From a virus: a stretch of DNA of 64,000 nt. The DNA lies in the IMG/VR virus record IMGVR_UViG_3300033388_002987, positions 1 to 64,000 of that record; one strand, given 5' to 3'. The translations under genes were made by a program, and so were the position numbers. Position 1 is the stretch's first letter, and each line of letters opens with the position of its first letter. Positions 4,014-59,687 of this stretch are shown here, piece by piece. Under the pieces are notes generated by a model. It was not told the DNA's origin. It saw nothing but the letters and a program-made list of their open reading frames with translations, and did no database searches.

Positions 4014-4042
4014 AGTCTACTATTACTTAACTTAATTGTCAA
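4014..4042 (-). promoter_or_regulatory. sigma70-type promoter
   Basis: TTGACA-N17-TAGACT upstream of 3991. Confidence 0.65.
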
Positions 4043-6892: not shown

Positions 6893-6966
6893 TGGATGCT
6901 CTGCTAGGATTCGAACCTAGGTTATCACAGTCAAAGTGTGAGGTCCTGCCGCTAGACGACAGAGCA
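6893..6966 (-). tRNA. tRNA-Gln(TTG)
   Basis: Acceptor TGCTCTG/CAGAGCA, anticodon loop CT TTG AC, T loop TTCGAAT, CCA. Confidence 0.95.
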
Positions 6967-6975
6967 GTATTTAAA

Positions 6976-7052
6976 TGGTGCCCAGAGTAGGAATTGAACC
7001 TACGACCCCTAGCTTTTCAGGCTAATGCTCTTACCGACTGAGCTATCTGGAC
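6976..7052 (-). tRNA. tRNA-Phe(GAA)
   Basis: Acceptor GTCCAGA/TCTGGGC, anticodon loop CT GAA AA, T loop TTCAATT, CCA. Confidence 0.95.
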
Positions 7053-7128
7053 TGGCTTCGTATCCTGGGCTCGAACCAGGGACATGCGCATTAACAGTAC
7101 GCCGCTCTACCAACTGAGCTAATACGAA
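7053..7128 (-). tRNA. tRNA-Asn(GTT)
   Basis: Acceptor TTCGTAT/ATACGAA, anticodon loop CT GTT AA, T loop TTCGAGC, CCA. Confidence 0.95.
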
Positions 7129-41532: not shown

Positions 41533-42354
41533 ATGATACCTAAATGGCTCTGGAATAAAACAATAGCAGTATACGATCTCGAAACAGACCGTATACCAAC
41601 GACCTTAATATATATGATGGGTGTATCAGTAGTAACTATCAACGCCAGAGGCGTTGCTACCTCAACTCCTAGTAAAGTCTTCACACACACCTGGACCTCT
41701 TACTCCAACGGAAGCCTTATGCAAGGCATCTCCTTAGTAAACTCCTGTGATTTCAGAGCTGGTCACAACTCCGTCGGATTTGATGACTACGAAGTTCGAA
41801 GGTATCTTAACATCCTACTTACTAAGCCAGCTCTCGACACTATGATACTCTCCAAGATAATCTTTTCCAAAGATGATCTCTTTGCTATGGATCCTCAACT
41901 AAAGATTGATAAAGACTTATGGGGAGGCTACTCGCTCAAGGCCTTTGGTCAACGACTAGGCGACTTTAAAATCTCCTTCGATAACTTCAACAAGATGAAC
42001 GAGGAAATGGCAGTATATTGTAATCAAGATGTAAATCTCACCAGTAAACTCCTACTTTTCCTTCTAAACAAAGAGAACTTCCCACTAGAACCTGTCGTAA
42101 CAATTGAACATCAGGCTGCTGCTATAATAGCTGAACAAACTGCCTTTGGTTTCTATATTGATATAGACTTAACTAGGAAGCTTAATACTAAGCTCCTTAA
42201 AGAAAAACTAGAACTATCTACTGAGCTCTCTAAGATCTTCTCTCCTAAGTTCTTAAAAGATGGTCCAGTTAAATCATACAAGAAAACAAGCAAGGTTAAG
42301 AAGTACCTTCCTAACACTCACTACATACCACTAATAGGAACTAATTATGACTAG
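41533..42354 (+). CDS. polA: DNA polymerase A (T7-like), N-terminal half: 3'-5' exonuclease and start of thumb
   Basis: ExoI YDLETD, ExoII GHNSVGFD, ExoIII YCNQDV; EH.AA.II..Q...GF..D thumb start; stops early. Confidence 0.9.
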   Translation: MIPKWLWNKTIAVYDLETDRIPTTLIYMMGVSVVTINARGVATSTPSKVFTHTWTSYSNGSLMQGISLVNSCDFRAGHNSVGFDDYEVRRYLNILLTKPALDTMILSKIIFSKDDLFAMDPQLKIDKDLWGGYSLKAFGQRLGDFKISFDNFNKMNEEMAVYCNQDVNLTSKLLLFLLNKENFPLEPVVTIEHQAAAIIAEQTAFGFYIDIDLTRKLNTKLLKEKLELSTELSKIFSPKFLKDGPVKSYKKTSKVKKYLPNTHYIPLIGTNYD

Positions 42355-42511
42355 AGATGAAGCTCAAGGACTATCATTCTTCACAGAAGACGATGTAACT
42401 AAAAGTCTTGATAAACTTTATGACTTTTTTGGGAGTGATATTAAGAAACTAGAACAGCAAGTAGCTTATTGGAAGCTTAGCTTCCAAAAGCAATGTGAAG
42501 CGACAAGGTAA
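42347..42511 (+). CDS. hypothetical 54-aa protein overlapping polA-N stop
   Basis: Manual translation MTRDEAQGLSFFTEDDVTKSLDKLYDFF... Confidence 0.55.
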   Translation: MTRDEAQGLSFFTEDDVTKSLDKLYDFFGSDIKKLEQQVAYWKLSFQKQCEATR

Positions 42512-42514
42512 GTA

Positions 42515-42976
42515 ATGAACCTCTCAGACGATTCCATAGATCAAATCTATGAGTCCCTAGATTTATCCTGCTACCACTTCACTTGGTCCATTATAAACAA
42601 AGGCTCCAAAGGAGACTTTGTACTAGAATACATCCACCAAGAACTACTTCAAGACAGCTCTTTAACACGCTGCCTTGCATTAGTATTATGGGATAGTATG
42701 GACTGGAATGATGCTGTAACAGCTTATAATGATGAAGATTATCTAGTATTAACTACAGAAGAAGTAGACGATGAAATGCTAGAATCTGCCCAGAGTTATT
42801 TATATGAAGTAGTACTTCCAGAAATCCCGGAGTACCTACACTATTACTTCAATGAAGATACCTATATTAAAGACTACATTAATGATACAGTTCCCGGTGA
42901 AGTTATTGCAGACCATGATGGTGCGGAGCACTCTGTAGATGTAGATGGAACAACTTATTATATTTATAGAAAATAA
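42515..42976 (+). CDS. highly acidic putative DNA-mimic/antirestriction protein
   Basis: About 34 D/E vs about 6 K/R by manual count; Tyr-rich C-terminus YFNEDTYIKDY..YYIYRK, ArdA-like. Confidence 0.5.
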   Translation: MNLSDDSIDQIYESLDLSCYHFTWSIINKGSKGDFVLEYIHQELLQDSSLTRCLALVLWDSMDWNDAVTAYNDEDYLVLTTEEVDDEMLESAQSYLYEVVLPEIPEYLHYYFNEDTYIKDYINDTVPGEVIADHDGAEHSVDVDGTTYYIYRK

Positions 42977-44465
42977 TACGCTCGTCTCTATAAGACGTCG
43001 GGTTTGTGAAGCGAGGCTAACAAAACCAGTAAATGAAGTTTGCTGTACAAATAAGTCTTGAGATAGATAGTGACTGCCTGCTAAAGTACACGGCTATAAA
43101 ATGCAATCAACATCTACTAGTAGTGATGGAATCAGTGACACCTTAAGTGGTCTGCGGATTCGCGGTAAACTTTATTCTAGATAAAGGGTACTTGACCGCT
43201 ACTTCGGTAGTAACATATATGGTGAGTACAGTTACATGAGACATTTTGAGTCTAAGGAACTTGACATCCCAGGGTCGAAGTCCCTGGGCTACTAAAAGTC
43301 TAAACGAGACTGTAAATTGTACCGAACCCTTTAAGTAGGGCTAAATTGCAGGTTGCGGCCAACAGTCCGTACTAATAAATAGAATGATGCAGAAATGTAG
43401 AAATAGAGACTTACCTGTTCCACCACCTTATCTAAGGGCAACACCGTGAAGCCGGGGAACGACCAGTACGATTTATCGCTGACCCTAGACGGTCTTCAGC
43501 TGAAGAAAGCGTCCAGCTTCCACTCCATTTGCCTTCATTGGAGTATAACATTAAGACACCGGGATTTATACACCTTGGTTAATACAAACGTATGATATGA
43601 GCAGTAGGCTGCCTGTGTAAGTCAGGCCTGGGACACCAAAAGTCACGTAGGACCACTAGACTATAAAATCCATGGTGCTTGCTGGGATGCAAGGTGTAAA
43701 CCGTCTGACCGCTGTAGAGGACGTTAAATAGGCAGATACTAGTGAATCTAAGCAATCATTAGTAGCTAGTAACGTCAATGACAGAATAAGCTACGGCTTA
43801 GGAATCTTCGTTATGAAGGTGCCCACTACCTTAAGTGTGGGAGCTATGTTGTACCCATTCGGAGGGAACCTGACGCAGGCATAGTGAGTTCGAAACCGTC
43901 TAGTTGTGACTACTAATTAAAGTACAGACAATCCCTGTGAGCATACATAGTGGTGCAGGCCACAGCTTATTCCCTGGTTTGGGGTACAGTCCGTTCAAAT
44001 CGAGACTGGGTAAGTCCTGTTAATGTATGTTCTTAGGGGTCGTCGCAGCATGCAAGCGAATGACCGCTAATCATAAATAAACATGTACCATTATTTGTCA
44101 GTTGCGTAAATTCGAAAGAAACTGTCTGGTCAAACATATAGCTGAGGGATGTAACCTTTCAAAGTATATCTCAGCACAAACAAATAAGCTTATGGAGCTA
44201 ATAGACTAGGTAGGGAATCCTGCACTATTGGTTCTAGTAAGTTTATCGGGTCAAGCAAATGCCCCTCACAGCCCACGCCAGTATGATTGGATTCAAAGGG
44301 AGTAGTAAAATAATATGTGCCAAACAACGTGTATGAGAGTAAATACTACCGTTATTGTGATGGGTGTGCCTAGCCAGGACCTGTAGACTACCAATTCACA
44401 ATTAAAACAAAGAATAATAACGTTATGGTGCCCAGCAAACCTGGGTACTAGTAACGACTATTAAA
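42977..44465 (+). ncRNA. candidate very large structured non-coding RNA (or RNA cluster)
   Basis: No ORF of 60 aa or more in any frame over ~1.5 kb; visibly GC-richer; dense hairpins with UUCG/GAAA and T-loop-like loops. Confidence 0.6.
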
Positions 44466-44473
44466 GGAATTAA

Positions 44474-44851
44474 ATGAACTTCAAAATAGGTGATTCAGTA
44501 CGTATTAAAACATTAGCAAACCTAACAGAACAGTACGGAGTGTATGGCGACGGTGATATAAGGTGCTCCCCTTACTTTAAACCATCTCACAAAATATACT
44601 GTGGAAGATCTGGTACTATATCATCAATAACTGATAATGGGATTGCACTTACAGAAGCAGCTTTTGATAATAACGTATTCTCCTCGAAAGTATTAGAACG
44701 AATAGTTGAACTTACACTAGTTAAAGGGCATATACTTATATGTGATTTTGATGCATACTCAATAAACATTAATATAAATAAAGGGTACACTATACGTGAA
44801 TTTCATGATAACAAATGTATAATGGTGTATTCCCCTATAAATACTTTATAA
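44474..44851 (+). CDS. KOW/SH3-like domain protein (paralogous to N-terminus of 31106)
   Basis: MNFKIGDSVRIK vs MSFKIGDKVRVK. Confidence 0.6.
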   Translation: MNFKIGDSVRIKTLANLTEQYGVYGDGDIRCSPYFKPSHKIYCGRSGTISSITDNGIALTEAAFDNNVFSSKVLERIVELTLVKGHILICDFDAYSINININKGYTIREFHDNKCIMVYSPINTL

Positions 44852-44859
44852 GGTAATCT

Positions 44860-45405
44860 ATGAAACAATATGGAATAATACTAGGACGCATGCAACCAAT
44901 ACATATAGGCCACCAATCACTAATAGATAAAGTCATCTCCGATGACTTTACTCCTATAGTAATTCTTGGAACAGCTCAAGAATTTGGTACTAAGAAAAAC
45001 CCTTACCACCCTCTAGAACGTATCCATATGGTAAAATTAGTCTACCCTGACATCAGAGTATACGCCATGGACGATACTGAAGACTGGGATAAGTGGTTTA
45101 CAAACTTAGTAGATATCATCAAACTAATAGCTACTACTAACCTCTCCGAGGTTACAATATACACTCACAACAAACCTGAAGACCTTATGGACTTCACGTT
45201 CAAAGGTGTTGATTACACTAACGAGTACTACAGCAAATGCTACGAAATACTTGGTATCAATACAGAAAACATCAAAACATCTCACGTCCCTATAAGAGCC
45301 TCATCAATAAGAGCGAACTTAGAAATAAACAAACAATTCCTAGACCCTAAAGTCTACAACTACATAAAGGGCTGTAATGCTAAAACCAGTAACAATAATA
45401 TCTAA
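44860..45405 (+). CDS. nicotinamide-nucleotide adenylyltransferase (NadM-like)
   Basis: GRMQPIHIGH (HxGH), KNPY..ERI, IRASSIR. Confidence 0.9.
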   Translation: MKQYGIILGRMQPIHIGHQSLIDKVISDDFTPIVILGTAQEFGTKKNPYHPLERIHMVKLVYPDIRVYAMDDTEDWDKWFTNLVDIIKLIATTNLSEVTIYTHNKPEDLMDFTFKGVDYTNEYYSKCYEILGINTENIKTSHVPIRASSIRANLEINKQFLDPKVYNYIKGCNAKTSNNNI

Positions 45406-45958
45406 AGAAAAATTAACAAACCCTAGATTCATCAGTACCTCAGCTCTTAACATCATTAGAGACAGCCACACCATGCAATGGGAAATGATTAACTCATTAC
45501 CAACAGTTCACATACTTGTAAACAAAGTAGACTCTCAAGAAATCTTACTAGTTAAACAAGTACGCCCTCCTGTTCTCTACAACAACAATGCACCACATGG
45601 TGAGTGCATCGAGGTATGTGCTGGACTAGTAGATAAGTACAGTAGACACCATGAAGATTCTCAAACTGCTTTAGTTGCTAAAGAAGAAGTACTTGAAGAA
45701 CTAGGTTACACTACAAGTTACATCCAAAGACTACAACCTATTCTAGGTTCTGTAGGAACAGCTGGCACTAAATTACATCTATTCTACACTGAAGTAACTG
45801 ATGCCAACTTCGTTGGCCAACAATTGGAGCCAACTGAGGATATCGAAGTAGTTAAACTATCTTACGAAAATGTATTAAATTTTATTAATACAACATCAAA
45901 CACAGACTCTACAACAATTATGTTATTACAATGGTTCTTATTAAATAAAAGGAAATAA
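45377..45958 (+). CDS. NUDIX hydrolase (ADP-ribose/NDP-sugar pyrophosphatase-like)
   Basis: LLVKQVRP; EVCAGLVD...AKEEVLEELGY Nudix box; EDIEV. Confidence 0.88.
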   Translation: MLKPVTIISKEKLTNPRFISTSALNIIRDSHTMQWEMINSLPTVHILVNKVDSQEILLVKQVRPPVLYNNNAPHGECIEVCAGLVDKYSRHHEDSQTALVAKEEVLEELGYTTSYIQRLQPILGSVGTAGTKLHLFYTEVTDANFVGQQLEPTEDIEVVKLSYENVLNFINTTSNTDSTTIMLLQWFLLNKRK

Positions 45959-45959
45959 A

Positions 45960-47360
45960 ATGCAATCAATACTAAGCCTTGGAGACTCTTACAAGTACTC
46001 TCACAGTTCTCAATACCCTTCCAACACAGTCTCCATGTACTCTTACATGGAATCTCGTGGAGGAAAATACGAGGCAACTGTATTCGTAGGCCTACAATAC
46101 TACTTAGTAAAGTACTTAACAATCCCTGTAACATTACAAGAACTTGAAAAGACTAAACTCAAAGCGGCTGCCCATGGCATCCCCTTCGACTACGATGGCT
46201 GGTTACACATAATAAACAACCACAACGGTCTATTACCAATAAAAATTAAAGCAGTAAAAGAAGGCTCACTAATACCTGTAAAACATGTCCTATTAACAAT
46301 TGAATCAACTGACCCAGCTGTCCCTTGGATTGCTGGCTTCGTAGAAACTCTTCTAATGAAGATATGGTACCCAACAACTATAGCAACTAAGTCTTACTAT
46401 GTAAAACAAATGCTAACTAAATATGGCTCACCTGGATGGGCTCAATTTGCATATCATAACTTCGGAGATCGTGGAGCTACATCAGTTGAAGCCGCTGCAA
46501 TAGGTGGCATGGCCCACCTAACACAATTCAGCGGAACTGACAACTTTAACGCTTTAGACCTATGCGAGGACTTCTACGAAGAACCTATGGCAGGCTATTC
46601 TGTATACGCAACTGAGCACTCTACAACTACGTCCTATGGACGTGACGGTGAAGAACAATTCGTATACAACCAACTATTAGCAAATCCTGATAAGCCTATC
46701 ATGAGCTTCGTAGCTGACTCTTACGACGTGTACAACTTCACTGAATTCTGTACGGCTCCTGGTAGTCGTATTAGAAACCTAGTTGAATCTCGTCCACACC
46801 AAAAACTAGTCTTACGTCCAGATAGTGGCAACCCTTTAGAAGTACTACCTAAAATGCTAAATATAGCATTCCACAATGGCGCCATTACTACAGGCCCTAA
46901 AGGCGCTTACATATTTACTGATTTTGCGTTTCTTTGGGGTGACGGTATTACACCTGAAACTATAGAACTAATTCTTAAAGCACTTATTGAACTTGGTTAT
47001 GCAGCTGAAAACTTCGTTTTCGGCTCTGGTGGGGACTTAATGCAAAACATCAACAGAGACACTCAACGCTTCGCGATTAAGTGCTCTAATATTACAGTAG
47101 CTAAATCCTCAGGACAAGGCTTGCAACGTACTCACTACAATGAAGACATCGACGTCTACAAAGACCCTATTACCGACCCTGGTAAAGCATCTAAACGTGG
47201 CAAAGTAACTACTTGGTATGACACCTTATCAGGTGAAATAACCCAAGGACTGGTAAACACTCCTCCAAACTTAGACTGTATTTGTTTACTACAAACTGTC
47301 TTTGAAAATGGTAAGGTAGTTAAACCCACTATATTAGCTGAAATTAGAGAGGCAATATAA
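45960..47360 (+). CDS. nadV: nicotinamide phosphoribosyltransferase
   Basis: DSYKYSH, HNFGDRG, ATEHS, RPDSG, GDGI, FGSGG, KDPITDPGKASKRG. Confidence 0.95.
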   Translation: MQSILSLGDSYKYSHSSQYPSNTVSMYSYMESRGGKYEATVFVGLQYYLVKYLTIPVTLQELEKTKLKAAAHGIPFDYDGWLHIINNHNGLLPIKIKAVKEGSLIPVKHVLLTIESTDPAVPWIAGFVETLLMKIWYPTTIATKSYYVKQMLTKYGSPGWAQFAYHNFGDRGATSVEAAAIGGMAHLTQFSGTDNFNALDLCEDFYEEPMAGYSVYATEHSTTTSYGRDGEEQFVYNQLLANPDKPIMSFVADSYDVYNFTEFCTAPGSRIRNLVESRPHQKLVLRPDSGNPLEVLPKMLNIAFHNGAITTGPKGAYIFTDFAFLWGDGITPETIELILKALIELGYAAENFVFGSGGDLMQNINRDTQRFAIKCSNITVAKSSGQGLQRTHYNEDIDVYKDPITDPGKASKRGKVTTWYDTLSGEITQGLVNTPPNLDCICLLQTVFENGKVVKPTILAEIREAI

Positions 47361-47692
47361 TGGAACTACTCTTAGTAATCTCACTACTACTAGTCATCCA
47401 CTTCGTGGCTGACTTTCTACTACAATCTAATTGGATGGCTCAAAATAAATCTAAAAACAACAAGGTATTACTATATCATGTATCAGTATACTCACTACCG
47501 TTCATGGTCATCATAAGTCCCCTATATGGACTTATTAATGGTGCCCTTCACTTTGCTGTGGACTACTACACTTCACGCTATACAAGTAAGCTATGGAACT
47601 CTGGTGAGGTACATTGGTTCTTCGTTGTAATTGGTCTTGACCAATTACTACATATACTGTCCTTAATATGGACTTACCACTTATTATTTTAA
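47360..47692 (+). CDS. DUF3307-like membrane protein
   Basis: HFVADFLLQ..H..HFAVD..IGLDQLLH. Confidence 0.8.
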   Translation: MELLLVISLLLVIHFVADFLLQSNWMAQNKSKNNKVLLYHVSVYSLPFMVIISPLYGLINGALHFAVDYYTSRYTSKLWNSGEVHWFFVVIGLDQLLHILSLIWTYHLLF

Positions 47693-47701
47693 AGGATTAA
47701 T

Positions 47702-48493
47702 GTGACTAAAGAACAAGTAGAGACACATGGAGAAGTAATTAAGTGGTTTTGTGATAATGCAGATAAAGGTGCATGGATGGCACACGAAAAAGGTTCATGG
47801 TCTTTAAGAATAGAACCTACATGGGACACTAATTGTTTTTACGTTCAAAACGACCAATATGCTGTCCTTCGTAAAGCTCAAGCAGATGGTAAGGCCATAC
47901 AAATAAGACAGAATCCTCATGCTAATTGGGTGGATGGTAACACCAAAGCATTCTCTTTATTATATGAATGCTATCGTATCAAACCAGATGAACCTAAATT
48001 TAAAGACTTACTTATACTTGGTGATTACTACAAGGCAGACACAGAAGGTAATATTCACTCCAAAAGAACTGGAAAGATATTGAAACCATACCTAGAAAAG
48101 AATGGCTATCTAACAGTAACCTTGTTTCATAAAGAGCAAGGCATAAAGAAAACTAAAACAGTACATAGACTAGTTATGGAAGCTTTCAATGGAGAAAATA
48201 CACTTGATGTAAACCATATAGATGAAGACAAGACTAACAATAAGCTGTCTAATCTTGAGTGGATGACAAGAAAAGAAAATGTAAATCATGGTACTGGTAG
48301 GGCAAGACAAGTTGAAGCTAATTCAACTCGAGTAAAAGCTACCCACCTAAAGACTGGAGAAGAGTTAGAATTTATATCATGTGCTGAAGCTATTAGACTT
48401 GGTTATGCAACATTAGATGTATATGAATATCTTAAAAGCAATACAAGATTATCACACAAGGGGATGAGATGGGAACTTCAGACAGATTCGTAA
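47702..48493 (+). CDS. phage protein fused to NUMOD4/HNH endonuclease
   Basis: C-terminal [26 protein letters not shown]. Confidence 0.8.
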
Positions 48494-48900
48494 CAATATG
48501 TACTCAATGTAGGTTGATTGATTACAACTGTAAATGTGGGGATGAAAAAACAAGTCCTTTTAAAGTAGGAGATTGGGTAAGAGTTACTTGTGAATTTTCC
48601 ACTACAATACAAAAGATATACAATATAACTCATGCTGCAATTAATTTTGAAGAGTTTTCTACCAAGAATATTAACACTAGGAGTTTTGCACCATTAAACG
48701 ACAGAGGGTTTAAAATTGAACTATGGCAACCAACTGAAGGTGAATGGTGTGTGTTTTGGGATAGAGAAACAACGGATAGATATTCAATTAGAAAATACAG
48801 AAATAAAGTTCCACAAGGGTATTTTGATGTAACATCAAAAGTATGGACAAACATAGCCCCACTAGAATTTATACAAACACTAAAGGACACGCATGCGTAA
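48469..48900 (+). CDS. hypothetical (probable displaced C-terminal part of 47702 host gene)
   Basis: PFKVGDWV continues the PKFK junction; [14 protein letters not shown]. Confidence 0.55.
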
Positions 48901-50023
48901 ACTTGTAACAACAAGAACAGTAGACAAGCTAATACCAATCCCTAAAGCAGACCGCATAGAAATAGCCTTAATAGGTGGCTGGTCATGTATCGTTAAAAAA
49001 GGTGAGTTCTCTGAAGGAGATCAAGGCATCTTCTTCGAAATAGATTCTTGGATTCCTGAAACAGACTCTAGATTCTCTTTCCTAGGTTCTACTAAAGACT
49101 ACCTTGGTAACCAAGGTTGGCGTATACGCACAATGAAGATGCGTGGTGTAATCTCTCAAGGATTACTACTACCACTAGCATCATTCCCTGAGTTAAACTT
49201 GTCTAACGAATCTCACGAGGACGCACTTGGCGTACTTAAATGGGAACAGCAAACTGGTGATGACTCTCGTCTTGGTATAAAAACTTCAACTAAAGTTCCA
49301 AAGTTCCCTAGCTTCATCCCTAAGACTGATCAAGAACGCATTCAAAACTTAATGCACTACTTCAACACTCACAAGGAAATGCAATTCGAAGAGACACTAA
49401 AACTAGATGGCTCATCAATGACTTGTTATAAGATTGATAAAGAGTTTACTTTACTACAAAGGCTTGCAAATAACTTCGCCCTACACTTCAGAATCAAACC
49501 ATTCTTTAAAGGTGAACACTTTGGTGTATGTAGTAGGAACTTAGAGCTTAAGTCTACTGCTAACTATGAAACAACTTATGATAACGATGGTAAAACATCA
49601 ACCCATTCTCAAGGAAACTTCTGGAGAACAGCACTCAAGTATGGTATCCACACAGCACTTCCAGTAGGCTTCGCCATACAGGGAGAGCTTATCGGACCAT
49701 CAATCCAGGGCAACCACGAAAAGGTAGAGGAACTGGAGTATCATATCTACGATGTGTTTGCTATTAAACTAGGCCGTTATCTAACTCCAGAAGAACGCGT
49801 AGCGTTCTGTAAAGTCACACTAGCAGGAGTACCTCATGTACCAATTATCGGAACTTCAAAGGTATTCTCAGATGTAAACTCATTTGATGAACTACAAGCA
49901 AGAGTAACTGGAGAATCAATTAACCCTAAAACAGTATCAGAAGGTCGTGTCTACAAATCAATATGTGGCACAACAACCTTCAAAGCTGTATCAAATCAAT
50001 ACCTCCTTAAAGGCGGTAATTAA
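48893..50023 (+). CDS. RNA ligase (Rnl2/DRB0094-like) with N-terminal OB fold
   Basis: IPKADRIE, FFEIDS, FIPKTDQERIQN, motif I KLDGSS, QGELIG, EG.VYK..FKAVS. Confidence 0.9.
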   Translation: MRKLVTTRTVDKLIPIPKADRIEIALIGGWSCIVKKGEFSEGDQGIFFEIDSWIPETDSRFSFLGSTKDYLGNQGWRIRTMKMRGVISQGLLLPLASFPELNLSNESHEDALGVLKWEQQTGDDSRLGIKTSTKVPKFPSFIPKTDQERIQNLMHYFNTHKEMQFEETLKLDGSSMTCYKIDKEFTLLQRLANNFALHFRIKPFFKGEHFGVCSRNLELKSTANYETTYDNDGKTSTHSQGNFWRTALKYGIHTALPVGFAIQGELIGPSIQGNHEKVEELEYHIYDVFAIKLGRYLTPEERVAFCKVTLAGVPHVPIIGTSKVFSDVNSFDELQARVTGESINPKTVSEGRVYKSICGTTTFKAVSNQYLLKGGN

Positions 50024-50031
50024 GGACTAAA

Positions 50032-50679
50032 ATGGAACTCTGCTGTATCAGTGACACTCACAGTAAACACGCTCAACTAGACCTCACACAATACCCAGCA
50101 GACGTCCTAGTCCACGCAGGGGACTGGACAAGAAGTAATGACCTAGAGCTATCTGAGACTATTAATTTCCTTGAATGGCTTGAGAACCAACCCTATAAGC
50201 ACAAAGTGCTTATAGCTGGTAACCATGAAGTACAAGTAGAAGCTGATATTGAAAACTTTAAAAGAGTCTTAGCTATAATAGCTCCGTCAGTGACATTCTT
50301 AAACGACTCTGCTGTAATAATATCCGGCATCAAGTTCTACGGTTCACCTTACTCTAATGAGTTTTTTAACTGGGCTTTTATGGAAGACGAGTTTTACTTA
50401 AAGCATCGCTGGGATAAAATCCCAGACGATACTCAGGTACTAATAACACATGGCCCTGCATACGGCTGTAATGACCTAGTGAAACACTATAGAGGAGCTG
50501 ACCCTCATGTAGGTAGTAAGTCTTTACACTATCGTAAACTTACTATACAAGATTCTTTAAAGTTACACATAAGTGGGCATATACATGAGGCCTACGGGGT
50601 AACTGGTAATAGTGTCTGTGCTAGTGTACTTGATGAGAAATATCAATTGGTTAATAAGCCAATAGTAATGGAGATTTAA
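50032..50679 (+). CDS. calcineurin-like metallophosphoesterase
   Basis: ISDTH, HAGD, AGNHE, LITHGP, SGHIHE. Confidence 0.92.
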   Translation: MELCCISDTHSKHAQLDLTQYPADVLVHAGDWTRSNDLELSETINFLEWLENQPYKHKVLIAGNHEVQVEADIENFKRVLAIIAPSVTFLNDSAVIISGIKFYGSPYSNEFFNWAFMEDEFYLKHRWDKIPDDTQVLITHGPAYGCNDLVKHYRGADPHVGSKSLHYRKLTIQDSLKLHISGHIHEAYGVTGNSVCASVLDEKYQLVNKPIVMEI

Positions 50680-50888
50680 TGAAAACTACACACATGTTCC
50701 CTGATAGAATGGGTAATGATATAACTATAGGCTGCACAGTAGCCGTAGTTGTTAAACGAGGGTGGGTTGCTGCATTAGCTTATGGAGAAGTACTTTCTGT
50801 AGACTCTAAGATAAAAGTAAAAGGATTTGGAGCTAAGCGTACTTGTAAAGAAGTACTAGTTCTAAAAACATTAAATGAAAACCAATAA
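50679..50888 (+). CDS. hypothetical protein
   Basis: TAATG-coupled. Confidence 0.55.
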   Translation: MKTTHMFPDRMGNDITIGCTVAVVVKRGWVAALAYGEVLSVDSKIKVKGFGAKRTCKEVLVLKTLNENQ

Positions 50889-50904
50889 AACAAAGGAAAA
50901 CAAC

Positions 50905-51192
50905 ATGGCAAAAACAATCAGAAACGGAAGAGCATTTCCAAAATCAGTAAAATCAGCAGTTCTAGATGAACTAAGAAACGGTGTTAAATCACAAGTATCG
51001 ATTGGAGCTGCTCACAACGTGAGTAGCGTAACAGTATCCGCATGGGGAGCAGCTGCAGGTATTGCACCAGCAATCTCACAACCAGTTCAACTAGCAGCAC
51101 ATTGTGCACGTCTTAAAACAGCAACTGCTTTCAATACTCCTATACCACAAGCTGACGGGTCAATCCTATTCAAGGGTAAGTCTTACAGATAG
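50905..51192 (+). CDS. HTH DNA-binding protein
   Basis: FPKSVKSAVL...SQVSIGAAHNVSSVTVSAW; ATG 50905 after AAGGA. Confidence 0.7.
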   Translation: MAKTIRNGRAFPKSVKSAVLDELRNGVKSQVSIGAAHNVSSVTVSAWGAAAGIAPAISQPVQLAAHCARLKTATAFNTPIPQADGSILFKGKSYR

Positions 51193-51590
51193 TCAACTAG
51201 GTTACGGTATTAGGCCGTTTATAAATAGCAGGTCGCTTACCTATTACTCCTCTTATAGTAACGCTCAACTTAGGGCGGTACCTGCTTGCAGAACTGTAGT
51301 GGAGGCCAATGCGACATGCCTAATAAGTACTAGCAGTCTGTCAAGACTATAAACTTGTCTGACATAATCTCTCAGAAGTATCTCTACCCATACTAATTGA
51401 GGTAGATGCAAAAAGACACAGCAACTGTATAAGGCTAGAGCAGGGTGGATCCTGCTTACATTTAGTACTCCTAAGAGCATCAACAGCACCATGTAAGGGG
51501 TGCGTTGTAGCAGAGAAGGTTTACACCTTCTCGGTACCGAGCAGGTACATGCAACAGCTGATGTTCTAAGGAATACTAATAAATTTTAAA
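51193..51590 (+). ncRNA. candidate ~400-nt structured RNA
   Basis: Multibranch stem 51462-51482/51559-51579; hairpin AGCAGG-GTGGAT-CCTGCT; long-range 9-bp pairing 51278-51286 with 51540-51548. Confidence 0.5.
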
Positions 51591-51598
51591 GGAATAAC

Positions 51599-52579
51599 AT
51601 GACAGGTTTACAAGAATTAATTAATAAGATAAAAGCTGAGGATCACTCAGCGTACTTAGCACTGCTAAATAAGATAAATGGTGAGAAAATGGACAGGTAC
51701 GCCATTGGTAAATTATTTGCAAGTGCTACATTCACAAAAATAACTAATAATCAGTTACTACTACTACGCTCTATGAGTTTTAAAGGTGGTGATACTATCT
51801 GGCTTAGCACGTATAACCGTACACTTTCAAGCTTTGAAAATAGGTTTCAGAATACGCGTGGAGACTACCAGTTGAAATATGGTATTGATTCTCTACCAAA
51901 AGTTGATACTAAATTTATAACTACCTACCACAGAACTCAATGGCGTAAAGCTAACCCGTCTACTCGTAAGAACGGTCCTGCTAAAGGTACTCAATTTACA
52001 TTTAAAATGGATATGTTCTCACTAACCATCTTTAAAAATAGTATAAAGAACGAGTTCCTCCGCACCGAGGGTAAGAACTTTATAATGAAAGTCAATAAGG
52101 CTTTCAGTGAGTCAGAAGGTAATGATTCCCATACTAAGATACGTAATAAATTTTATGCACTGATACTTGATAATACTCCAGTACATACTAAAGCTATGAT
52201 AAATGAATTAAGTCCAACTGCTTTAAAAACTAATGGTACTTACTACATACCTGATGCTGATGAAGCAATAATAGTAGGATTCCGTTGGGGAGGTGATAAC
52301 GAAGTTAGCTACGCTACATCCTATAGCATGGACACATACTCAACTGACTTACCACTAGTAACACACAACATCGGATCAGAAGATGAACGTCACAATAATA
52401 GGTTACTATCAGCCAGCTCTATGTTACTAACAGCACACGCCTCGACAGATTGTGAAGCTTATAAGTCTGCAGCTACACGTATGGTAAAACACTTACCAAG
52501 AACTATAGTCACAGCTGCTTTAGCAAAAACACAAGCCGTAGCGACACTACGCTCAATCTTAAAGGAATCAAATGAATAA
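51599..52579 (+). CDS. hypothetical protein, 326 aa
   Basis: AAGGA RBS. Confidence 0.7.
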   Translation: MTGLQELINKIKAEDHSAYLALLNKINGEKMDRYAIGKLFASATFTKITNNQLLLLRSMSFKGGDTIWLSTYNRTLSSFENRFQNTRGDYQLKYGIDSLPKVDTKFITTYHRTQWRKANPSTRKNGPAKGTQFTFKMDMFSLTIFKNSIKNEFLRTEGKNFIMKVNKAFSESEGNDSHTKIRNKFYALILDNTPVHTKAMINELSPTALKTNGTYYIPDADEAIIVGFRWGGDNEVSYATSYSMDTYSTDLPLVTHNIGSEDERHNNRLLSASSMLLTAHASTDCEAYKSAATRMVKHLPRTIVTAALAKTQAVATLRSILKESNE

Positions 52580-54853
52580 TACAATCACAACAATACTCTC
52601 TACAAACATTAAAGGGCAATTAGCCGGAGCAGACATAGGTGGAGGTATCTGTATAGCTGGGTCACCAGGTATCGGTAAAACTCAAACTATGTACAAGATA
52701 GCTAAAGACTTAAACATGGAGATTGTGCAAGTATCAATCCCAGAAGTATCCACTGAAAACCTTTCGGGTTAACAAACAATTGAACATTACACTTAAAACC
52801 TACCACGATGAGAATATAAAAATGATAATGGTAGTCTAAAGTAATAATGTTTAATTTGTTACAGCCCCTCTACACAGTAATGTGTATAGCAAATCCCTTT
52901 AATTGCTGGGAACTCTTGTAAGTTTTAATACTACAATAACCGTGAAAACAGGTTATGAATGTTTAACAAATTAAAAATAGAGACAATCAGCAGCCAAGCT
53001 CCGTATAGGAGAAGGTTCAACGACTAGTGCATTGTGCACGTACACCTAAGTAGGTGGAAATGGGGGACATCTTTAAACTAACTTTAAGAAATTTCTCGGT
53101 ATACTTACTTATCTAATTTAAGGAAGTACAATGGGAAATAAAGAAATTTTCAAACCAGTCAACTCTAAATACGGTACTCGTTACGAAGTGTCAAATCAAG
53201 GAAGACTGAGAATAACAACTAAGTGTGGAACAAAGCTCCGAACAGGTAGCTTACACCCTCAAATGCATACTACATATGTAAAAGCATCATTATCTAATAA
53301 TGGTATAAACTACACAGTACATATGCACAGACTAGTTGCCGAGGCATTCATACCGAATCCTGACAATAAACCATTCGTAAATCATAAAGATAAGGATGGT
53401 ACTAATAATAATGTATCTAATCTAGAGTGGACAACTCCCTCAGAGAATATGCAACATTCCGCTGATAATCTAGCCCTTAATAGTAAAGCTAAAAGCACAA
53501 AGAAACGTATAACTACGGTAACTCTTGACAGCTTTGAAGATTACTTAACATATATAGGCAAAGACATCGGAGGACGTACTATTATTGGTGTACAGTATAA
53601 GAAACTAACAATAGGCAATAAGCCTGTATTTAAGTGGTTTGGTGTTTATACTTGTAACAATTGTCAAGACGAAATAAGTAGCCCTTGGAATCAAACAATG
53701 AGAAGATCACTAGAAGGACGTAAGCAATTTTGCTTACAATGCTCTAGAAAGTTAAAACCTAAAGATGAAGATATAGTCTAGCCTACACAGAGATGTGTAG
53801 CTGCAGGTAATGCTGCGGACACAGCCTAACGAGCTGTGTTGAATATAAGCGATTCCAGACTTCCTTGACGCTCAACATATGGATGCTTACTCAGTAACTG
53901 GTACAACTGACTCACAAGCTACTAAATGGTCTGTACCTCAAATTATTGAAACAGTAAACCGCTTAGCTGCTACACCCGGCAAAGCCGGTTGTATCTTATT
54001 CATAGATGACTTGCACCGTGTAAACATGGCAGTAGCTCCCTACTTATACGGTCTCCTTGGAGAACGTAAACTAGGCTCTTATAGACTTGACGGAAAAGTG
54101 GCTATCATGGGCGCAATGAACGACTCTGACGAAGCAGGCTTCTCAGGAGTAGACAGCCCTATTAAAGATAGAATTGGTATTTTACCAGTTCCATTCGACT
54201 TTGAATACTGGTTTGATAACTTTGGTAAACACCTACACTTCTATGTAAGTTCATTCTTAAAAACTCATTCTAGCTATGTACAAGAAGATGAATCAACTAT
54301 GATTGAGCAATTTGCTACACCGCGTTCGTGGTCACACCTTGCAAATGAGTTTGAACTATACGACTTGGATTTCATCCAAGCACATACTACCTTACTTGCA
54401 AAACAAAAGGTATCTATTGCAGCTGCAAATGAACTTCAAAAACACATCGCATACGTTGAGGCAATTGACTTCACAGCTAAAATCAAAGCTAAGCAACCTA
54501 TCAATATAGCTGGACTTAAACCTATTGACCAGATCTTGTATGCATACATCATTAACTATGTTACTGATATAGAAGATGCAAAATACGTTATGAGTCTTAT
54601 TGATGGTAATATTGATTCAGCTAACTTCATTGGCTTCATAATAGGAGAGCTTTACAACAAGTTCATCGCTAAAGAAGGTGGCAAGCATATCAACGACGGC
54701 CTTACAATTATCTTAGAAAAATTGCTTAAATCAGATTACAACCCAGAATCTTATAATAAACCTATGAGTAAGGCTGTAAAAGAAACTTATGACAAGTTAT
54801 CATTCGCTGAACACGATAAGTTGTTCGCTGTAGCGTCAGAGTTTATACATTAA
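52572..54853 (+). CDS. AAA+ ATPase (N4 gp24-like), spliced: exon 1 52572-52769, exon 2 53852-54853
   Basis: Walker A GSPGIGKT in exon 1; splicing restores ENLSG-IPDFL; Walker B LFIDD and ATPRSW in exon 2. Confidence 0.9.
52770..53851 (+). mobile_element. group I intron (IA2-like)
   Basis: Exon ends in U paired to G in P1 (GGGU/GCCC); P AATTGCTGGGAA, Q AATCAGCAGC, R GTTCAACGACTAG, S AAGATATAGTC; terminal G at 53851; in-frame ligation. Confidence 0.93.
53131..53781 (+). CDS. intron-encoded NUMOD4/HNH homing endonuclease
   Basis: HRLVAEAFIPNP..VNHKD..NNNVSNLEW; located between R and S. Confidence 0.9.
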   Translation: MGNKEIFKPVNSKYGTRYEVSNQGRLRITTKCGTKLRTGSLHPQMHTTYVKASLSNNGINYTVHMHRLVAEAFIPNPDNKPFVNHKDKDGTNNNVSNLEWTTPSENMQHSADNLALNSKAKSTKKRITTVTLDSFEDYLTYIGKDIGGRTIIGVQYKKLTIGNKPVFKWFGVYTCNNCQDEISSPWNQTMRRSLEGRKQFCLQCSRKLKPKDEDIV

Positions 54854-54855
54854 CA

Positions 54856-55092
54856 ATGGTTGGTAGAGTAGTACTTCCTGGTAGTACTTTAACACTACAG
54901 TGTATCATAGACGCTACTAGGTCAATGGACTACCCAAATTACGGTAAACTTAAACGCCAGGTAGAAAGTATTCGCAATCCAATTGAACAACTCTTTCGCC
55001 TTAAAGCCCTTATTGATAATCCTATGCTTGATATTAGTACTCGTAATGCAGCTACCTTAATACTAAAGGACTTACAAAATGGACAAATTTAA
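54856..55092 (+). CDS. small hypothetical protein
   Basis: Part of an overlapping mini-ORF array. Confidence 0.55.
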   Translation: MVGRVVLPGSTLTLQCIIDATRSMDYPNYGKLKRQVESIRNPIEQLFRLKALIDNPMLDISTRNAATLILKDLQNGQI

Positions 55093-55294
55093 ATGGAAAA
55101 TATTCATTGAAGTACTAGAAAATAGCCCTACTGAACTATCACTAGACCTCTTCGAAGAGTCCCTACTAGCTCTTCCTACGGAAGACCTAAACTCAGTTGC
55201 TGAAGCACTTAAATGCACCACATCAACACCTTCAGACGTCAAAACAGCTAAGCATGTTATAGAAATGCTGCAAATATTATGGCACTACCAGTAG
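55079..55294 (+). CDS. small MDKF-start protein
   Basis: AAGGA RBS; MDKFKWKIFIEVLEN. Confidence 0.6.
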   Translation: MDKFKWKIFIEVLENSPTELSLDLFEESLLALPTEDLNSVAEALKCTTSTPSDVKTAKHVIEMLQILWHYQ

Positions 55295-55497
55295 CGCTAG
55301 TAAATACTTTACGTAGTGGCTCTATAGGGGTTGCAGGACTTGCATTAAAGAACTATATAATAAGTTTACAAAAGTTTGAGCAGGTATTTGTAATACAAAG
55401 TCTACTAGATAGTGATTTAAAGAAACTATGTGGTAGAAGTGGGGTATCCCTTTATGTTAAGCATATACTACTAGATCTAAGGACTAAAAATGGGTAA
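55279..55497 (+). CDS. small hypothetical protein
   Basis: Overlapping array. Confidence 0.5.
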   Translation: MALPVALVNTLRSGSIGVAGLALKNYIISLQKFEQVFVIQSLLDSDLKKLCGRSGVSLYVKHILLDLRTKNG

Positions 55498-55681
55498 ACA
55501 GTATAACCCTTGGGACCCATGTTATCAAATGTGGAAAAGCTTTATTAATACAACTTGCTTAGGATGCTCAAAGATGCAAATACTATTTAAAGTACAAGCC
55601 TTTAGGAATAATAAGCACCACAAATATTTAGATAACTTAGAATGTCTTGATAAAGTACTAAAAGATATTAACAATGGATAA
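55490..55681 (+). CDS. small hypothetical protein
   Basis: AAGGA RBS. Confidence 0.55.
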   Translation: MGKQYNPWDPCYQMWKSFINTTCLGCSKMQILFKVQAFRNNKHHKYLDNLECLDKVLKDINNG

Positions 55682-55928
55682 GTTTCAACGTGAACTAATG
55701 ATAGTTACAATATGTAATACTAGCACTATTACTGAAGAGCAAGCATTAGCATTCACTACACAGCTTGACCATGAATTTAAGCATAATGCCTATACCCTTA
55801 CTTATCCTATGGTACGCCTAGCTAGACTATTAGACTACGATAAGTACCCTACTGAAGTTCATGCATTTACAACACATGTATTACTAAAAGCGGACATACA
55901 AAAATATAACAATAAAAGGGAGACTTAA
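55674..55928 (+). CDS. small MDKF-start protein
   Basis: MDKFQRELMIVTICN. Confidence 0.55.
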   Translation: MDKFQRELMIVTICNTSTITEEQALAFTTQLDHEFKHNAYTLTYPMVRLARLLDYDKYPTEVHAFTTHVLLKADIQKYNNKRET

Positions 55929-57373
55929 TGAATACACAAGACTTTATAAAAGAAGCAGAAAACCTTATCTATAAAGAAGTAGCTAAAAATACTAACCTTA
56001 TTTTAGGTAAGGCCAAGACTGCCTCACTAAGTACAGGACTATTCCTTAAGCTTCCAATAGAGGTAGTAGTTGAAAAAACTAGCGAACCAGTACCTAAATT
56101 ATATAAAGAACTAAAGTCTTTCATAAACTACTTTGGCGCTTACGTAATGCACGGTAATAGCTCTAAAGCTTACTTCAAATTCATGTATCATGATGAGAAA
56201 GATTTAACTGTTATATCAAATCACTTACATCGTCACGGTATGTTCTTTGCTTTTGTGTACTTACACGAAATCCAACACATAATAAGAAAGCATAACACCA
56301 GCTCGTATGAAACTATGATGACCCGTATATGTGGCGACACCGCATTCCCACATGAAATAATCAACATAGCAGAAGATCATGCTATTAACTATAGCCTTAA
56401 AGATTTATTCATAGCAGCAAAACTTAATCGTCAATGGACTCCTATTGAAGAAATTGGTATGTACAATCAAACATACCACAACGACCAACTATCAGACATT
56501 GATATCCTTAAAGACCTATTAAAGAAGAACCCTCCAATTACTAAGACACAAATCTCAGACATGATGTCTAAGATAACATGTGACGGTAAGGAGTCACTCC
56601 AACCTACTGACCCAGGAGGTAGCACACCTGCTGCCTCGAATAACGGTAAAGTAGATAAAACAAGTACATCGTCTGACGACGCTGACATAGCACTTTCAGA
56701 CCTATCTGAGTCAATACAAGATATCATACGTACCAACACTAAAGGTACTACAGCTGGCGACCTCTTCGAACAACTATTTGATTCAATTAAAGTTGAAACA
56801 GGTTGGTTCAAGAAGATCAAAGCATCATTCAAACGTCAAGTCTACTATAAGACTCATGACTACACAACTAGCTGGGCTAACCTTAACAACACATTTAGAC
56901 GTATTTACAAGTCACCTAAGAAGACCTTCATTGATAACAAGATTAATATCATATTATCAGTGGACCACAGTGGCTCTATGAGCACTGAAGACCTTCAAAA
57001 GTTACTCTACCTAGTCGAGTCTGAGTCAAACCGTATAGCATCTCTAAAGGTACTTATACACGATACTCGTGTAATTAAAGAGTTCTTAATAGAAGATGAT
57101 TATGACATAGCTAACAACCCTGAATTTAAGGAAGCCCTAGCGACTCGTTACACCTCCGGTGGAACTAGTCATAAATGTGTATTTGAACATATCCAAGACT
57201 CTAAACTAGTAGACCCTAATATGGTAATCTATATGAGCTTCTCAGATAACTATTCTGACATTGAGCAATGCTTTAAGTCTTATCCAGTAATGCGAAAGCT
57301 AACTAATTACTGGATCTGTGCTGGAGCTAATAACCCTGTATCAGTTCCTGGTACTAATATAATGATGGTATAG
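55928..57373 (+). CDS. metallopeptidase-vWA protein (DUF2201-like, N4 gp25-like)
   Basis: HEIQH (HExxH), NIAED; vWA MIDAS VDHSGSM, SGGT, FSD. Confidence 0.85.
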   Translation: MNTQDFIKEAENLIYKEVAKNTNLILGKAKTASLSTGLFLKLPIEVVVEKTSEPVPKLYKELKSFINYFGAYVMHGNSSKAYFKFMYHDEKDLTVISNHLHRHGMFFAFVYLHEIQHIIRKHNTSSYETMMTRICGDTAFPHEIINIAEDHAINYSLKDLFIAAKLNRQWTPIEEIGMYNQTYHNDQLSDIDILKDLLKKNPPITKTQISDMMSKITCDGKESLQPTDPGGSTPAASNNGKVDKTSTSSDDADIALSDLSESIQDIIRTNTKGTTAGDLFEQLFDSIKVETGWFKKIKASFKRQVYYKTHDYTTSWANLNNTFRRIYKSPKKTFIDNKINIILSVDHSGSMSTEDLQKLLYLVESESNRIASLKVLIHDTRVIKEFLIEDDYDIANNPEFKEALATRYTSGGTSHKCVFEHIQDSKLVDPNMVIYMSFSDNYSDIEQCFKSYPVMRKLTNYWICAGANNPVSVPGTNIMMV

Positions 57374-57375
57374 TA

Positions 57376-57642
57376 ATGGATAAGTTTAAGCTAATTATTT
57401 TAGAAAACCTTGCTAATAATACTAATCCTACCTTTGTAGGTGTAAGTACTTGCTTAGATTATTTATTAACCAAGAAGATTTGCATATGGTCAGAGACTAT
57501 AGAATATCTCTCATTTAATAAACCTAGTGGTCGAACTAAGCGTATAGCGAAAGCTTTACATAGAAATACTAAAGGCCTTGTAGGGCATAGCCACTATTTA
57601 GTATTCTTTAAAAATCATATGGATAAATATTTCAAGGATTAA
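57376..57642 (+). CDS. small MDKF-start protein
   Basis: MDKFKLIILENLAN. Confidence 0.55.
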   Translation: MDKFKLIILENLANNTNPTFVGVSTCLDYLLTKKICIWSETIEYLSFNKPSGRTKRIAKALHRNTKGLVGHSHYLVFFKNHMDKYFKD

Positions 57643-57643
57643 C

Positions 57644-58336
57644 ATGAACCAATTCCAATACACACTAGCTATGAATAAAATACCTACACTTAAAACTCAT
57701 AAAGCGAAAGAAGAATTTGCTAGGGAGATCTACGAAGTATTAGAGCCTCATGGTAAATGCTATTCTATGGATGTTAAAGACGACAACATACAAACTATAG
57801 TAAACGGGTATAAATGCCTTTGTGTAATAATACCTTTATGTACCAGTGCTAAAGGTTTACCACAATTTATAACTACCATACATGAGAACTGTCGTATAAG
57901 TTTACTAAGACGATGCACTAATACTAATAATATTACGTACGATGAGTATATTGATATGTTTCAATATGAGACTAATGAATTAAATTTTAGTAATGGGTAC
58001 CCTAGTAGTAGACAGCCATTTATTGACTTAATTGGAACTAACATTCAACCATATAAAATAGATCTAAATTTACGTGCAACAAATCAAGGCACTTATAGTG
58101 TACCATCATTTGATTTGTATACCCACAATCAATTACTGACTCTAGAAATGTATAAAGACCTAGCACTAAAAAGTAAAGTATTAACAGTAGTAGAAGATGA
58201 GTTAAAACGCCTTTATAGTCTAGTAGCTTCCCTAGACACTGCAGCTATGTTAACTGACTTAGACGATATAACACGCTCAGCTAATCTAATAACTAGTACC
58301 ATAAAGGCTCGCAATGAACAAGTTGGCACCATATAA
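57644..58336 (+). CDS. hypothetical protein
   Basis: AAGGA RBS. Confidence 0.6.
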   Translation: MNQFQYTLAMNKIPTLKTHKAKEEFAREIYEVLEPHGKCYSMDVKDDNIQTIVNGYKCLCVIIPLCTSAKGLPQFITTIHENCRISLLRRCTNTNNITYDEYIDMFQYETNELNFSNGYPSSRQPFIDLIGTNIQPYKIDLNLRATNQGTYSVPSFDLYTHNQLLTLEMYKDLALKSKVLTVVEDELKRLYSLVASLDTAAMLTDLDDITRSANLITSTIKARNEQVGTI

Positions 58337-59687
58337 GATACCATACGGACGCTACCTGAAATCAGGTGAGTACAGACCTCCAGGTAAGAAATCACTAAAG
58401 TGGTTCACAACCCCTCACAGAACTATTCACGTCACCCGTGAGGGTGACTACCAACAAGTAAAATACGAAGCCTTCAACCCTGGCTCACGCCATAACATCC
58501 GTCAATGGATGGAAGAGGACTTCGGCTATACATTCCCTTACTACACTCCCAAAGGTAACCCTAAAGTAGATGTAGATTCCCTAGAGAACATGCAACATCC
58601 TTCAGGTAAGCTCCTTAGACGTTACCTGAAGGTAACGAAAGACCAATCTCAAGTGGGAGGAGCCGACGGTTCACTAGTTAAAAACTACAATGAAACTCAG
58701 CGTACTGTAAAGTCAAGGACTGACACTAATGGAACGGTAACAGGCAGGTTCACTAGTAGCTCAATTAACTTAGCACAGATACCTGCACAACAAGAGTTCC
58801 GAGAACTTTTCAGGGCACCTCAAGGCTGGTCCTTCTTAGGAACAGACTTTAGTGGACAAGAGAACGTCAACCTAGCAGAAATGCTCTACCCATACGACGA
58901 TGGACGCCTAGCGGACATCATCGCCTCAGGTAACAAGGACGATGGTACAGACCTTCACTCCCTAAACGCTAAAGCCTGTGGCATCTCCCGTGGAGACGCT
59001 AAACCACTTTGGTTTGGATTCCTATACGGATCCTCTCCAACCTTAACAGGCTACACGTTACTAAAGCATGGCTTCTTTGCTGACTACACTCCTAAAGAGT
59101 TTACTGCTATGGAGAAGAAACTTAAACGTAGAGTAATCTCGCTAGACACTGGTGAATTCTACCCAATCAAGAAAGACGCACTAGTACCATTCAATAAACA
59201 GCTTATTATACAAGCGCTCTTTGGTGCTAAAGTACAAGCAGACCTTATTGCATCAACACATGGACTTGCAAGCCTCATTAAGAACTTAACTATGACAGCT
59301 AAGGCAAATGGGTATGTAACTATGTTTGGCGGCCGCAGGGTACCTATACGTCACGCTCACGCTACACTTAACTCACAACTACAAGGTATGGGTGCTGAAG
59401 CAATGAAGCACTACCTAGTATTCTATCACGAGGAAGCTAAGCGCCAAGGTTTACACCATGGCCAACACTTCAAACAAGAAGCTTGTATTTACGATGAGGT
59501 AGACTTAATAGTACGTGATGATAAACGCTTTGAAATAGCTGATATCCTCCAAGGTACTTACGAAAAGGTCTCCACACACTTAGGTATGAAATGTACTTAT
59601 ACAGGCGAGGTCCTCATAGGAGGTCACTCTAAAGACAAGCATGGCCCTAACGGCCTTGCTGATAACTCGTGGCAAGGATGTCACTAA
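58314..59687 (+). CDS. polA: DNA polymerase A (T7-like), C-terminal half: thumb, palm, fingers
   Basis: FNPGSRH, TNGTVTGR.TSS..NLAQIP, motif A DFSGQE, motif B R..AK...FGFLYG, motif C YDE. Confidence 0.93.
   Translation: MNKLAPYKIPYGRYLKSGEYRPPGKKSLKWFTTPHRTIHVTREGDYQQVKYEAFNPGSRHNIRQWMEEDFGYTFPYYTPKGNPKVDVDSLENMQHPSGKLLRRYLKVTKDQSQVGGADGSLVKNYNETQRTVKSRTDTNGTVTGRFTSSSINLAQIPAQQEFRELFRAPQGWSFLGTDFSGQENVNLAEMLYPYDDGRLADIIASGNKDDGTDLHSLNAKACGISRGDAKPLWFGFLYGSSPTLTGYTLLKHGFFADYTPKEFTAMEKKLKRRVISLDTGEFYPIKKDALVPFNKQLIIQALFGAKVQADLIASTHGLASLIKNLTMTAKANGYVTMFGGRRVPIRHAHATLNSQLQGMGAEAMKHYLVFYHEEAKRQGLHHGQHFKQEACIYDEVDLIVRDDKRFEIADILQGTYEKVSTHLGMKCTYTGEVLIGGHSKDKHGPNGLADNSWQGCH

Follow-up and report, generated by a model that had tools for sequence, protein, structure and literature searches.

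Can a phage rely on a DNA polymerase whose gene lies in two pieces 16 kb apart, and if so, how would the two products work together? The question is raised by IMG/VR virus record IMGVR_UViG_3300033388_002987, a sequence of 117,954 bp with terminal repeats that is rated 100% complete, the first 64 kb of which (hereafter the window) were analysed here. Two plus-strand open reading frames (ORFs) in the window, at 41533-42354 and 58314-59687, encode the exonuclease end and the polymerase end of a family A DNA polymerase (PolA), and they end and start with the sequences that an earlier note, made from the DNA letters, had described. The two ORFs are 15,959 nt apart, each has its own start and stop codon, and they do not encode a single polypeptide. 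It is probable that the sole polymerase of this phage, a family A enzyme like T7 gp5, is made from a gene cut in the thumb insertion, and that its two chains assemble.

The product of the upstream ORF (the N-half, P0001, 273 residues) comprises a 3'-5' exonuclease domain, the first thumb helix, the first long thumb strand (KSYKKTSKVKKYLP) and a short tail ending PLIGTNYD. All three exonuclease motifs reported previously are present (Exo I, DLE; Exo II, NSVGFD; Exo III, YCNQD), and residues D15, E17, N79, D84, Y162 and D166 are invariant in 13 homologues. The product of the downstream ORF (the C-half, P0002, 457 residues) consists of a basic thumb loop, the second thumb strand (RTIHVTREGDYQ) and the palm and fingers with motifs A (DFSGQE), B (RGDAKPLWFGFLYG) and C (YDE), and its score on Pfam PF00476 (DNA_pol_A) is 89.1 bits, the cut-off being 34.3. 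Of the motifs, Exo I-III, A and B have the canonical form. On PHROG 17 ("DNA polymerase") P0001 occupies positions 715-910 and P0002 positions 894-1209, i.e. adjoining parts of the family, and on the solved structures of T7 gp5 they align with residues 87-271 and 323-693, respectively. The stretch left unaligned between the halves corresponds to the thioredoxin-binding loop of T7 gp5, which we take to be residues 262-338. Close to the break, the N-half ends ~9 residues after a conserved YLPNxxY and the C-half starts 4 residues ahead of a conserved (T/A)PY.

A protein search with P0001 covered 1.84 billion representative proteins. It found single-chain homologues of ~700 residues with 36-41% identity to P0001 (P0009, P0011, P0015, P0020 and P0022), which are the relatives with an intact gene that the earlier note had proposed to look for, together with proteins of N-half size (252-279 residues, 36-65% identity) that share the same end point (P0003-P0005, P0007, P0008, P0012 and P0025). 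When the halves are mapped on the fused protein P0020, residues 13-264 of the N-half fall on 5-253 and residues 5-454 of the C-half on 261-701, and fused P0022 and P0053 behave in the same way. Where the relatives P0015, P0020, P0022 and P0053 are contiguous, the window has two intact ORFs, and these alignments show that the halves tile the ~700-residue single-chain proteins and that no segment is lost at the break.

The position of the break could be placed on a fold by means of an AlphaFold2 model of fused P0020 (mean predicted local distance difference test score, pLDDT, 94.2), the best PDB matches of which are T7 gp5 structures (2ajq and 6p7e, template modelling score 0.71-0.74). The order of elements in the model is first thumb helix (200-224), long strand (236-249), a 40-residue loop of low confidence (250-289) and a further long strand (290-301). 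It is at the beginning of this loop that the break falls, such that the N-half ends with the first strand and the C-half consists of the basic loop and everything from the second strand onward. Judged by the T7 gp5 alignments and the P0020 model, the break is located in the thumb loop equivalent to the T7 thioredoxin-binding loop, which is where it had been placed from the sequence. It had also been suggested that the halves pair through strand-like tails; this fits the model of the fused relative, in which two strands flank the loop that holds the break.

We propose that the proofreading exonuclease would come from the N-subunit, together with the first thumb helix and a single long strand, and that the C-subunit would add the partner of this strand, the basic thumb loop, and the palm and fingers. 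Folded together non-covalently, the subunits would rebuild the thumb and the exonuclease-polymerase interface from two chains. Assembly of the halves into an active heterodimer is, in our view, the most likely outcome. Some observations count against this proposal: motif C is YDE in the window, whereas it is HDE in T7; the pairing of the strands is read from the predicted secondary structure of a homologue, neither from coordinates nor from the window's own proteins; and in some genomes a DnaQ-like exonuclease adjoins the C-half and could in principle supply proofreading. A second intact polA was looked for in the complete genome, which proved to hold only one PolA, with no PolB and no PolIII alpha gene.

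The two products might instead form no complex, the C-half acting alone as an exonuclease-less polymerase and the N-half as a free-standing 3'-5' exonuclease. Phages with a separate exonuclease ORF are known, such as the cyanophages of clade B (PMC12695635) and DSL-LC07, and the half-genes of the window are far apart, with no translational coupling. However, the gene is cut inside the thumb and not at the border between exonuclease and polymerase. Because of this the N-half carries a thumb helix and strand, which would have no role in a lone exonuclease, yet they are conserved in all relatives; furthermore, every complete related genome retains both halves. We therefore consider independent action of the halves unlikely.

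The DnaQ-type exonuclease itself is a protein of 318 residues encoded on the plus strand at 60761-61717, between the C-half gene, which lies 1 kb upstream, and the DNA primase gene (61926-63332, plus strand). It matches PF13482 (39 bits) and PHROG 403 (E = 3e-97) and has a C-terminal CxxC...CxxC zinc ribbon. The earlier note had mentioned neither this gene nor the group I intron in the spacer nor the known split PolA and PolB genes of phages, which are both described below. The name of PHROG 403, "DNA polymerase exonuclease subunit", and the fact that the gene follows the C-half gene at a distance of 1 kb, here and also in G001, G002 and G004, where it is conserved, could mean that this protein, and not the N-half, is the partner of the C-half. 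Against this, it bears no relation to the fused homologues in their N-terminal part (20% identity, E = 0.45), nothing in it corresponds to a thumb segment, and the complete genome G005 keeps both halves without having it; in G003 only a 50-residue match was found. Since it is unrelated to the N-half, lacks a thumb segment and is missing from G005, a role as the obligate partner of the C-half is very unlikely, and pairing of the N-half with the C-half remains the preferred reading.

Is the split a property of these phages or of one assembly? The record is a metagenome assembly, and a gene in two pieces could be an assembly artefact or a decaying pseudogene. Related records, however, show the same arrangement: in G003, G004 and G005 both half-genes lie on one strand, N-half first, as in the window. 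The spacer is 3.7 kb in G005 (119 kb, complete), 8.1 kb in G004 (102 kb) and ~12 kb in G003 (102 kb, complete), where it spans the ends of the record. On contig L021 the 8.8 kb downstream of the N-half contain no C-half. In more distant lineages much shorter spacers are found, namely in L017, where the N-half is followed by an ORF of 95 residues and then the C-half, 274 nt separating the halves, and in L020, where 0.8 kb with three small ORFs intervenes; none of the small ORFs in these two spacers encodes a recognised nuclease. The N-halves of L017 and L020 both terminate in Y(E/K)GF, and each of the two C-halves is provided with a Met and a ribosome-binding site of its own.

The signals for separate translation are likewise conserved. 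The C-half of the window has its own ATG preceded by an AAGG ribosome-binding site, and in five genomes of the clade PYxIP follows the initial Met of the C-half after 2-4 residues, with AAGG, AAGGA or AGGAG upstream of the start. At the other side of the break, the (P/K)L(I/L)GT motif of the N-half tail is preserved across synonymous codon changes. Nonsynonymous divergence (dN) is 0.20-0.42 and synonymous divergence (dS) is saturated, with dN/dS of 0.06-0.19 where computable; these values indicate that both halves are under purifying selection. The misassembly that the earlier note had wished to see checked is unlikely, as independent assemblies from other samples carry the same split and gene order. 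Intact frames, invariant catalytic residues, purifying selection and the lack of any other polymerase in a genome with a completeness rating of 100% also speak against a pseudogene, and we regard an artefact or a decaying gene as extremely improbable.

A further possibility is that the halves are joined after all, by a trans-splicing group I intron or a split intein, or because the 16-kb spacer is excised from the DNA. Group I introns do occur in these phages, one of them in the window spacer and another at motif B of the G003 C-half. At the junctions, however, no group I RNA was detected (Rfam RF00028, E < 1) in the window or in its four relatives G003-G005 and L017, as had been claimed for the window from the sequence; the sole match in the window is at 52847-53800, within the spacer. 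The ORFs that adjoin the junctions overlap them (42347-42511 and 57644-58336), and because the upstream ORF of 230 residues overlaps the start of the C-half by 23 nt, there is no room for an intron half at the C-half junction. Trans-splicing at the junctions was rejected for want of an Rfam match. A split intein was likewise rejected, in agreement with the earlier reading of the ends: neither half contains a Hint/intein Pfam domain, and with only ~9 residues of the N-half and ~4 of the C-half extending past the break there are no spare residues to hold one. Excision of the spacer was rejected as well, the longest word common to both junctions being 8 nt, as expected by chance, and no recombinase being found in the 16-kb spacer. 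With the start codon and ribosome-binding site of the C-half also conserved, joining by any of these routes has almost no likelihood, and the halves would meet as separate proteins.

How did the gene come to be split, and did this happen once? Among 80 more distant T7-like PolA loci in IMG/VR, 74 have the polymerase in one ORF; a further 2 have an interruption at another place, contig ends truncate the remaining 4, and the thumb is split in none of the 80. In the closer subfamily the split is found repeatedly, L017 and L020 being examples. In a tree of the N-half, short forms are interspersed with fused ones, P0025 being sister to fused P0035 with 99% support in the Shimodaira-Hasegawa-like approximate likelihood ratio test (SH-aLRT), while the clade of the window (P0001, P0003 and P0004) has 99% support. 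When 8 split forms were constrained to a single clade apart from 19 fused forms, the approximately unbiased (AU) test marginally rejected the constraint (p = 0.035); since the tree was already known when the group was defined, this result does no more than suggest that fission took place more than once.

Mobile elements are conspicuous in the C-half genes of relatives. In G003 a 297-nt group I intron (L013, 2256-2552; 63.6 bits) interrupts the gene at motif B, and in both G003 and G004 (the latter at L011, 2026-2772) an insertion of ~0.9 kb lies at about residue 170, just before motif A. The ~0.9-kb insertions hold an ORF of 238-248 residues with weak, sub-threshold Pfam matches to treble-clef zinc-finger and T5orf172 domains. 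From these introns and insertions it follows that the phages are heavily colonised by mobile elements, and it is likely that such colonisation was the origin of the fission. We propose that the break is old and has been maintained by selection, that after the split the halves would have acted as separate genes, and that insertions (homing endonuclease, NAD+ salvage and RNA repair genes) together with rearrangements would have separated them by distances that range, between relatives, from 3.7 to 16 kb. As a more tentative idea, which we hold to be possible and no better than that, the start of the thumb insertion may be a recurrent fission site in this T7-like subfamily, struck separately in several lineages of phage, and the interval between the halves a protected landing pad for exchanged accessory or counter-defence cargo (NAD+ salvage, RNA repair, homing endonuclease and intron-bearing genes, for instance). 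If so, the polymerase gene would frame a variable island, and separate genes for proofreading and polymerisation could let the phage vary the ratio of the subunits.

What, then, lies between the halves? The spacer (42355-58313) was earlier said to hold about 30 unrelated genes. We counted ~26 ORFs, all on the plus strand, plus one group I intron and a 1.5-kb stretch free of ORFs; some of the genes are conserved in relatives and others are lineage-specific cargo. The cargo block comes after the N-half and is followed by a conserved block, which consists of a helix-turn-helix (HTH)-like gene, an ORF of 326 residues, an AAA ATPase gene, a DUF2201-like gene of 481 residues and the ORF of 230 residues that overlaps the C-half start.

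The ORF-free stretch (42976-44474) has no ORF of more than 58 residues on either strand. It was considered as a candidate for a conserved RNA, which was not supported: there is no Rfam match and no match in phage records, the RNA fold z-scores are 0.12 for 42990-43740 and -3.1 for 43741-44470, and only islands of 29-53 nt are in common with relatives. The cargo genes that follow, all on the plus strand, encode a cytidylyltransferase-like or nicotinamide mononucleotide (NMN) adenylyltransferase-like protein (44860-45405; PF01467, 23.5 bits, cut-off 21), a nicotinamide phosphoribosyltransferase (NAMPT; 45960-47360; phrog_448, E = 2e-114) a free-standing HNH endonuclease (47702-48493), an RNA ligase (48893-50023) and a metallophosphoesterase (50032-50679). 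The NMN adenylyltransferase-like and NAMPT pair resembles phage NAD+ salvage, and the RNA ligase and metallophosphoesterase pair resembles tRNA repair; by analogy, these sets resemble the type of cargo linked to counter-defence. Contig L021, the source of P0004, has the NMN adenylyltransferase-like, NAMPT and metallophosphoesterase genes in the same order, with 55-61% identity to those of the window, and an ORF-free stretch of similar size after the N-half. G003 shares only the metallophosphoesterase with the cargo block, and no relative yielded a match to the RNA ligase or the free-standing HNH gene.

In the conserved block, the HTH-like gene (50875-51192, plus strand, 105 residues) is the only spacer gene common to the window, G003, G004 and G005, and it is also found in the spacer part of L021. 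Its neighbour is the N-half gene in G004, which it directly follows, and the C-half gene in G005, which it directly precedes; it may be a regulator or a remnant of the element that split the gene. No thioredoxin gene was found in the phage genome; the HTH-like protein was considered as a thioredoxin-like factor and rejected, its AlphaFold2 model (pLDDT 76.6) giving only weak Foldseek matches, to HTH proteins. The gene for a MoxR-like AAA ATPase (52572-54853, plus strand) is divided into a Walker A exon (52572-52772, an ORF of 66 residues) and a main exon (53879-54853, an ORF of 324 residues) by the group I intron, the exon limits given being those of the ORFs. The intron (RF00028, 50.2 bits against a gathering score of 50, with matched parts at 52847-53135 and 53571-53800) encodes an HNH gene (53131-53781). 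The same intron is present in G004 with the endonuclease gene and in G003 without one (91 bits). Downstream, also on the plus strand, are the genes for a DUF2201/vWA-metallopeptidase-like protein of 481 residues (55928-57373), which is the likely partner of the AAA ATPase, and for the 230-residue protein of unknown function (57644-58336). In G005 the DUF2201-like gene is found upstream of the N-half, outside the interval between the halves; both rearrangement and insertion have therefore separated the halves.

Comparison with known systems shows how this arrangement differs from them. T7 gp5 has the same domain order, Exo I-III and motifs A-C and, as judged by the P0020 model, probably the same fold, and its 76-residue thioredoxin-binding domain is matched here by a thumb insertion of ~70 residues at the same position. 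However, T7 gp5 is one chain, whereas here a break where this insertion begins divides the protein into two, and the thumb loop has no sequence similarity to the T7 thioredoxin-binding domain. Split polymerase genes that lie far apart in the genome are known in archaea: Methanothermobacter and Nanoarchaeum have split PolB genes, and in Nanoarchaeum the two parts are rejoined through a split intein, which has no counterpart here. In phage PhiKZ, DNAP-N and DNAP-C of a split family B polymerase form a 1:1 complex (PMC13648687). The PhiKZ and archaeal polymerases thus consist of two chains, as proposed for the window, but they belong to family B and not to family A.

Family A polymerases encoded by two adjacent ORFs have been described in T7-like cyanophages of clade B (PMC12695635) and in the OM43 phages MEP401/402 (PMC10580990), and adjacent split PolA ORFs are also annotated in roseophage CRP-5 and DSL-LC07. 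Like the window, these phages have a two-ORF family A polymerase with the exonuclease part first. Their ORFs overlap, abut or have one small ORF between them, whereas here the distance is 3.7-16 kb, with ~26 genes between the halves in the window, and the cyanophage enzyme is cut at the exonuclease/polymerase border (172 + 426 residues) rather than inside the thumb.

Genes in pieces offer a further parallel. The PolB halves gp43A and gp43B of Aeromonas phage 25 co-purify and polymerise, and the split NrdA of Aeh1 is active; both, like T4 gene 60/39, arose from homing endonuclease insertion (PMC2988022). In those cases, as would be so here, the two chains of an essential replication enzyme are translated separately and reassemble. 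Homing endonuclease genes abound in this neighbourhood too, with up to three HNH genes in the spacer: those at 47702 and 53131 (within the intron) and perhaps one at 55928, which is assigned by PHROG label only. What separates the parts of genes in pieces, however, is either a single endonuclease gene or a short spacer that is not translated, whereas here no HNH gene lies at a junction and the spacer is a multi-gene island. Split polymerases are already known; this case differs in the cut inside the thumb insertion, the distance of 3.7-16 kb and the persistence of the split across a clade.

If the halves assemble, this locus would test in nature to what extent cutting is tolerated by a family A replicase, at the site of the T7 processivity factor rather than at a domain border, and it would offer a ready-made split site for engineering two-piece PolA enzymes. 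The fused, narrowly split and widely split natural variants would form a family in which subunit assembly and processivity could be studied. For annotators, a 270-residue "exonuclease" and a distant 450-residue "polymerase" in a phage genome may represent one enzyme. The locus also shows that the two parts of an essential gene can, after the gene has been split, move away from each other and come to enclose a variable gene island.

Some further observations concern the search results and the rest of the window. Many of the P0001-search matches of intermediate length (440-510 residues) fit truncation at the C-half interruption sites (motif B and about residue 170). The fused protein P0020 (on L109) and the split-gene phage G003 come from one metagenome sample (JGI 3300026512), from which it follows that fused and split versions of this polymerase subfamily co-occur in one habitat; the gene orders of the two differ. 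At the nucleotide level, no close relative emerged from megablast and distant blastn searches of 50,697 phage records, the sole match being 45 nt of the intron core (52982-53026), which are 100% identical to Pseudomonas phage HPP-Temi. Four tRNA genes (Pro, Gln, Phe and Asn) are clustered on the minus strand at 6819-7128, adjoining the large terminase gene (4039-5778).

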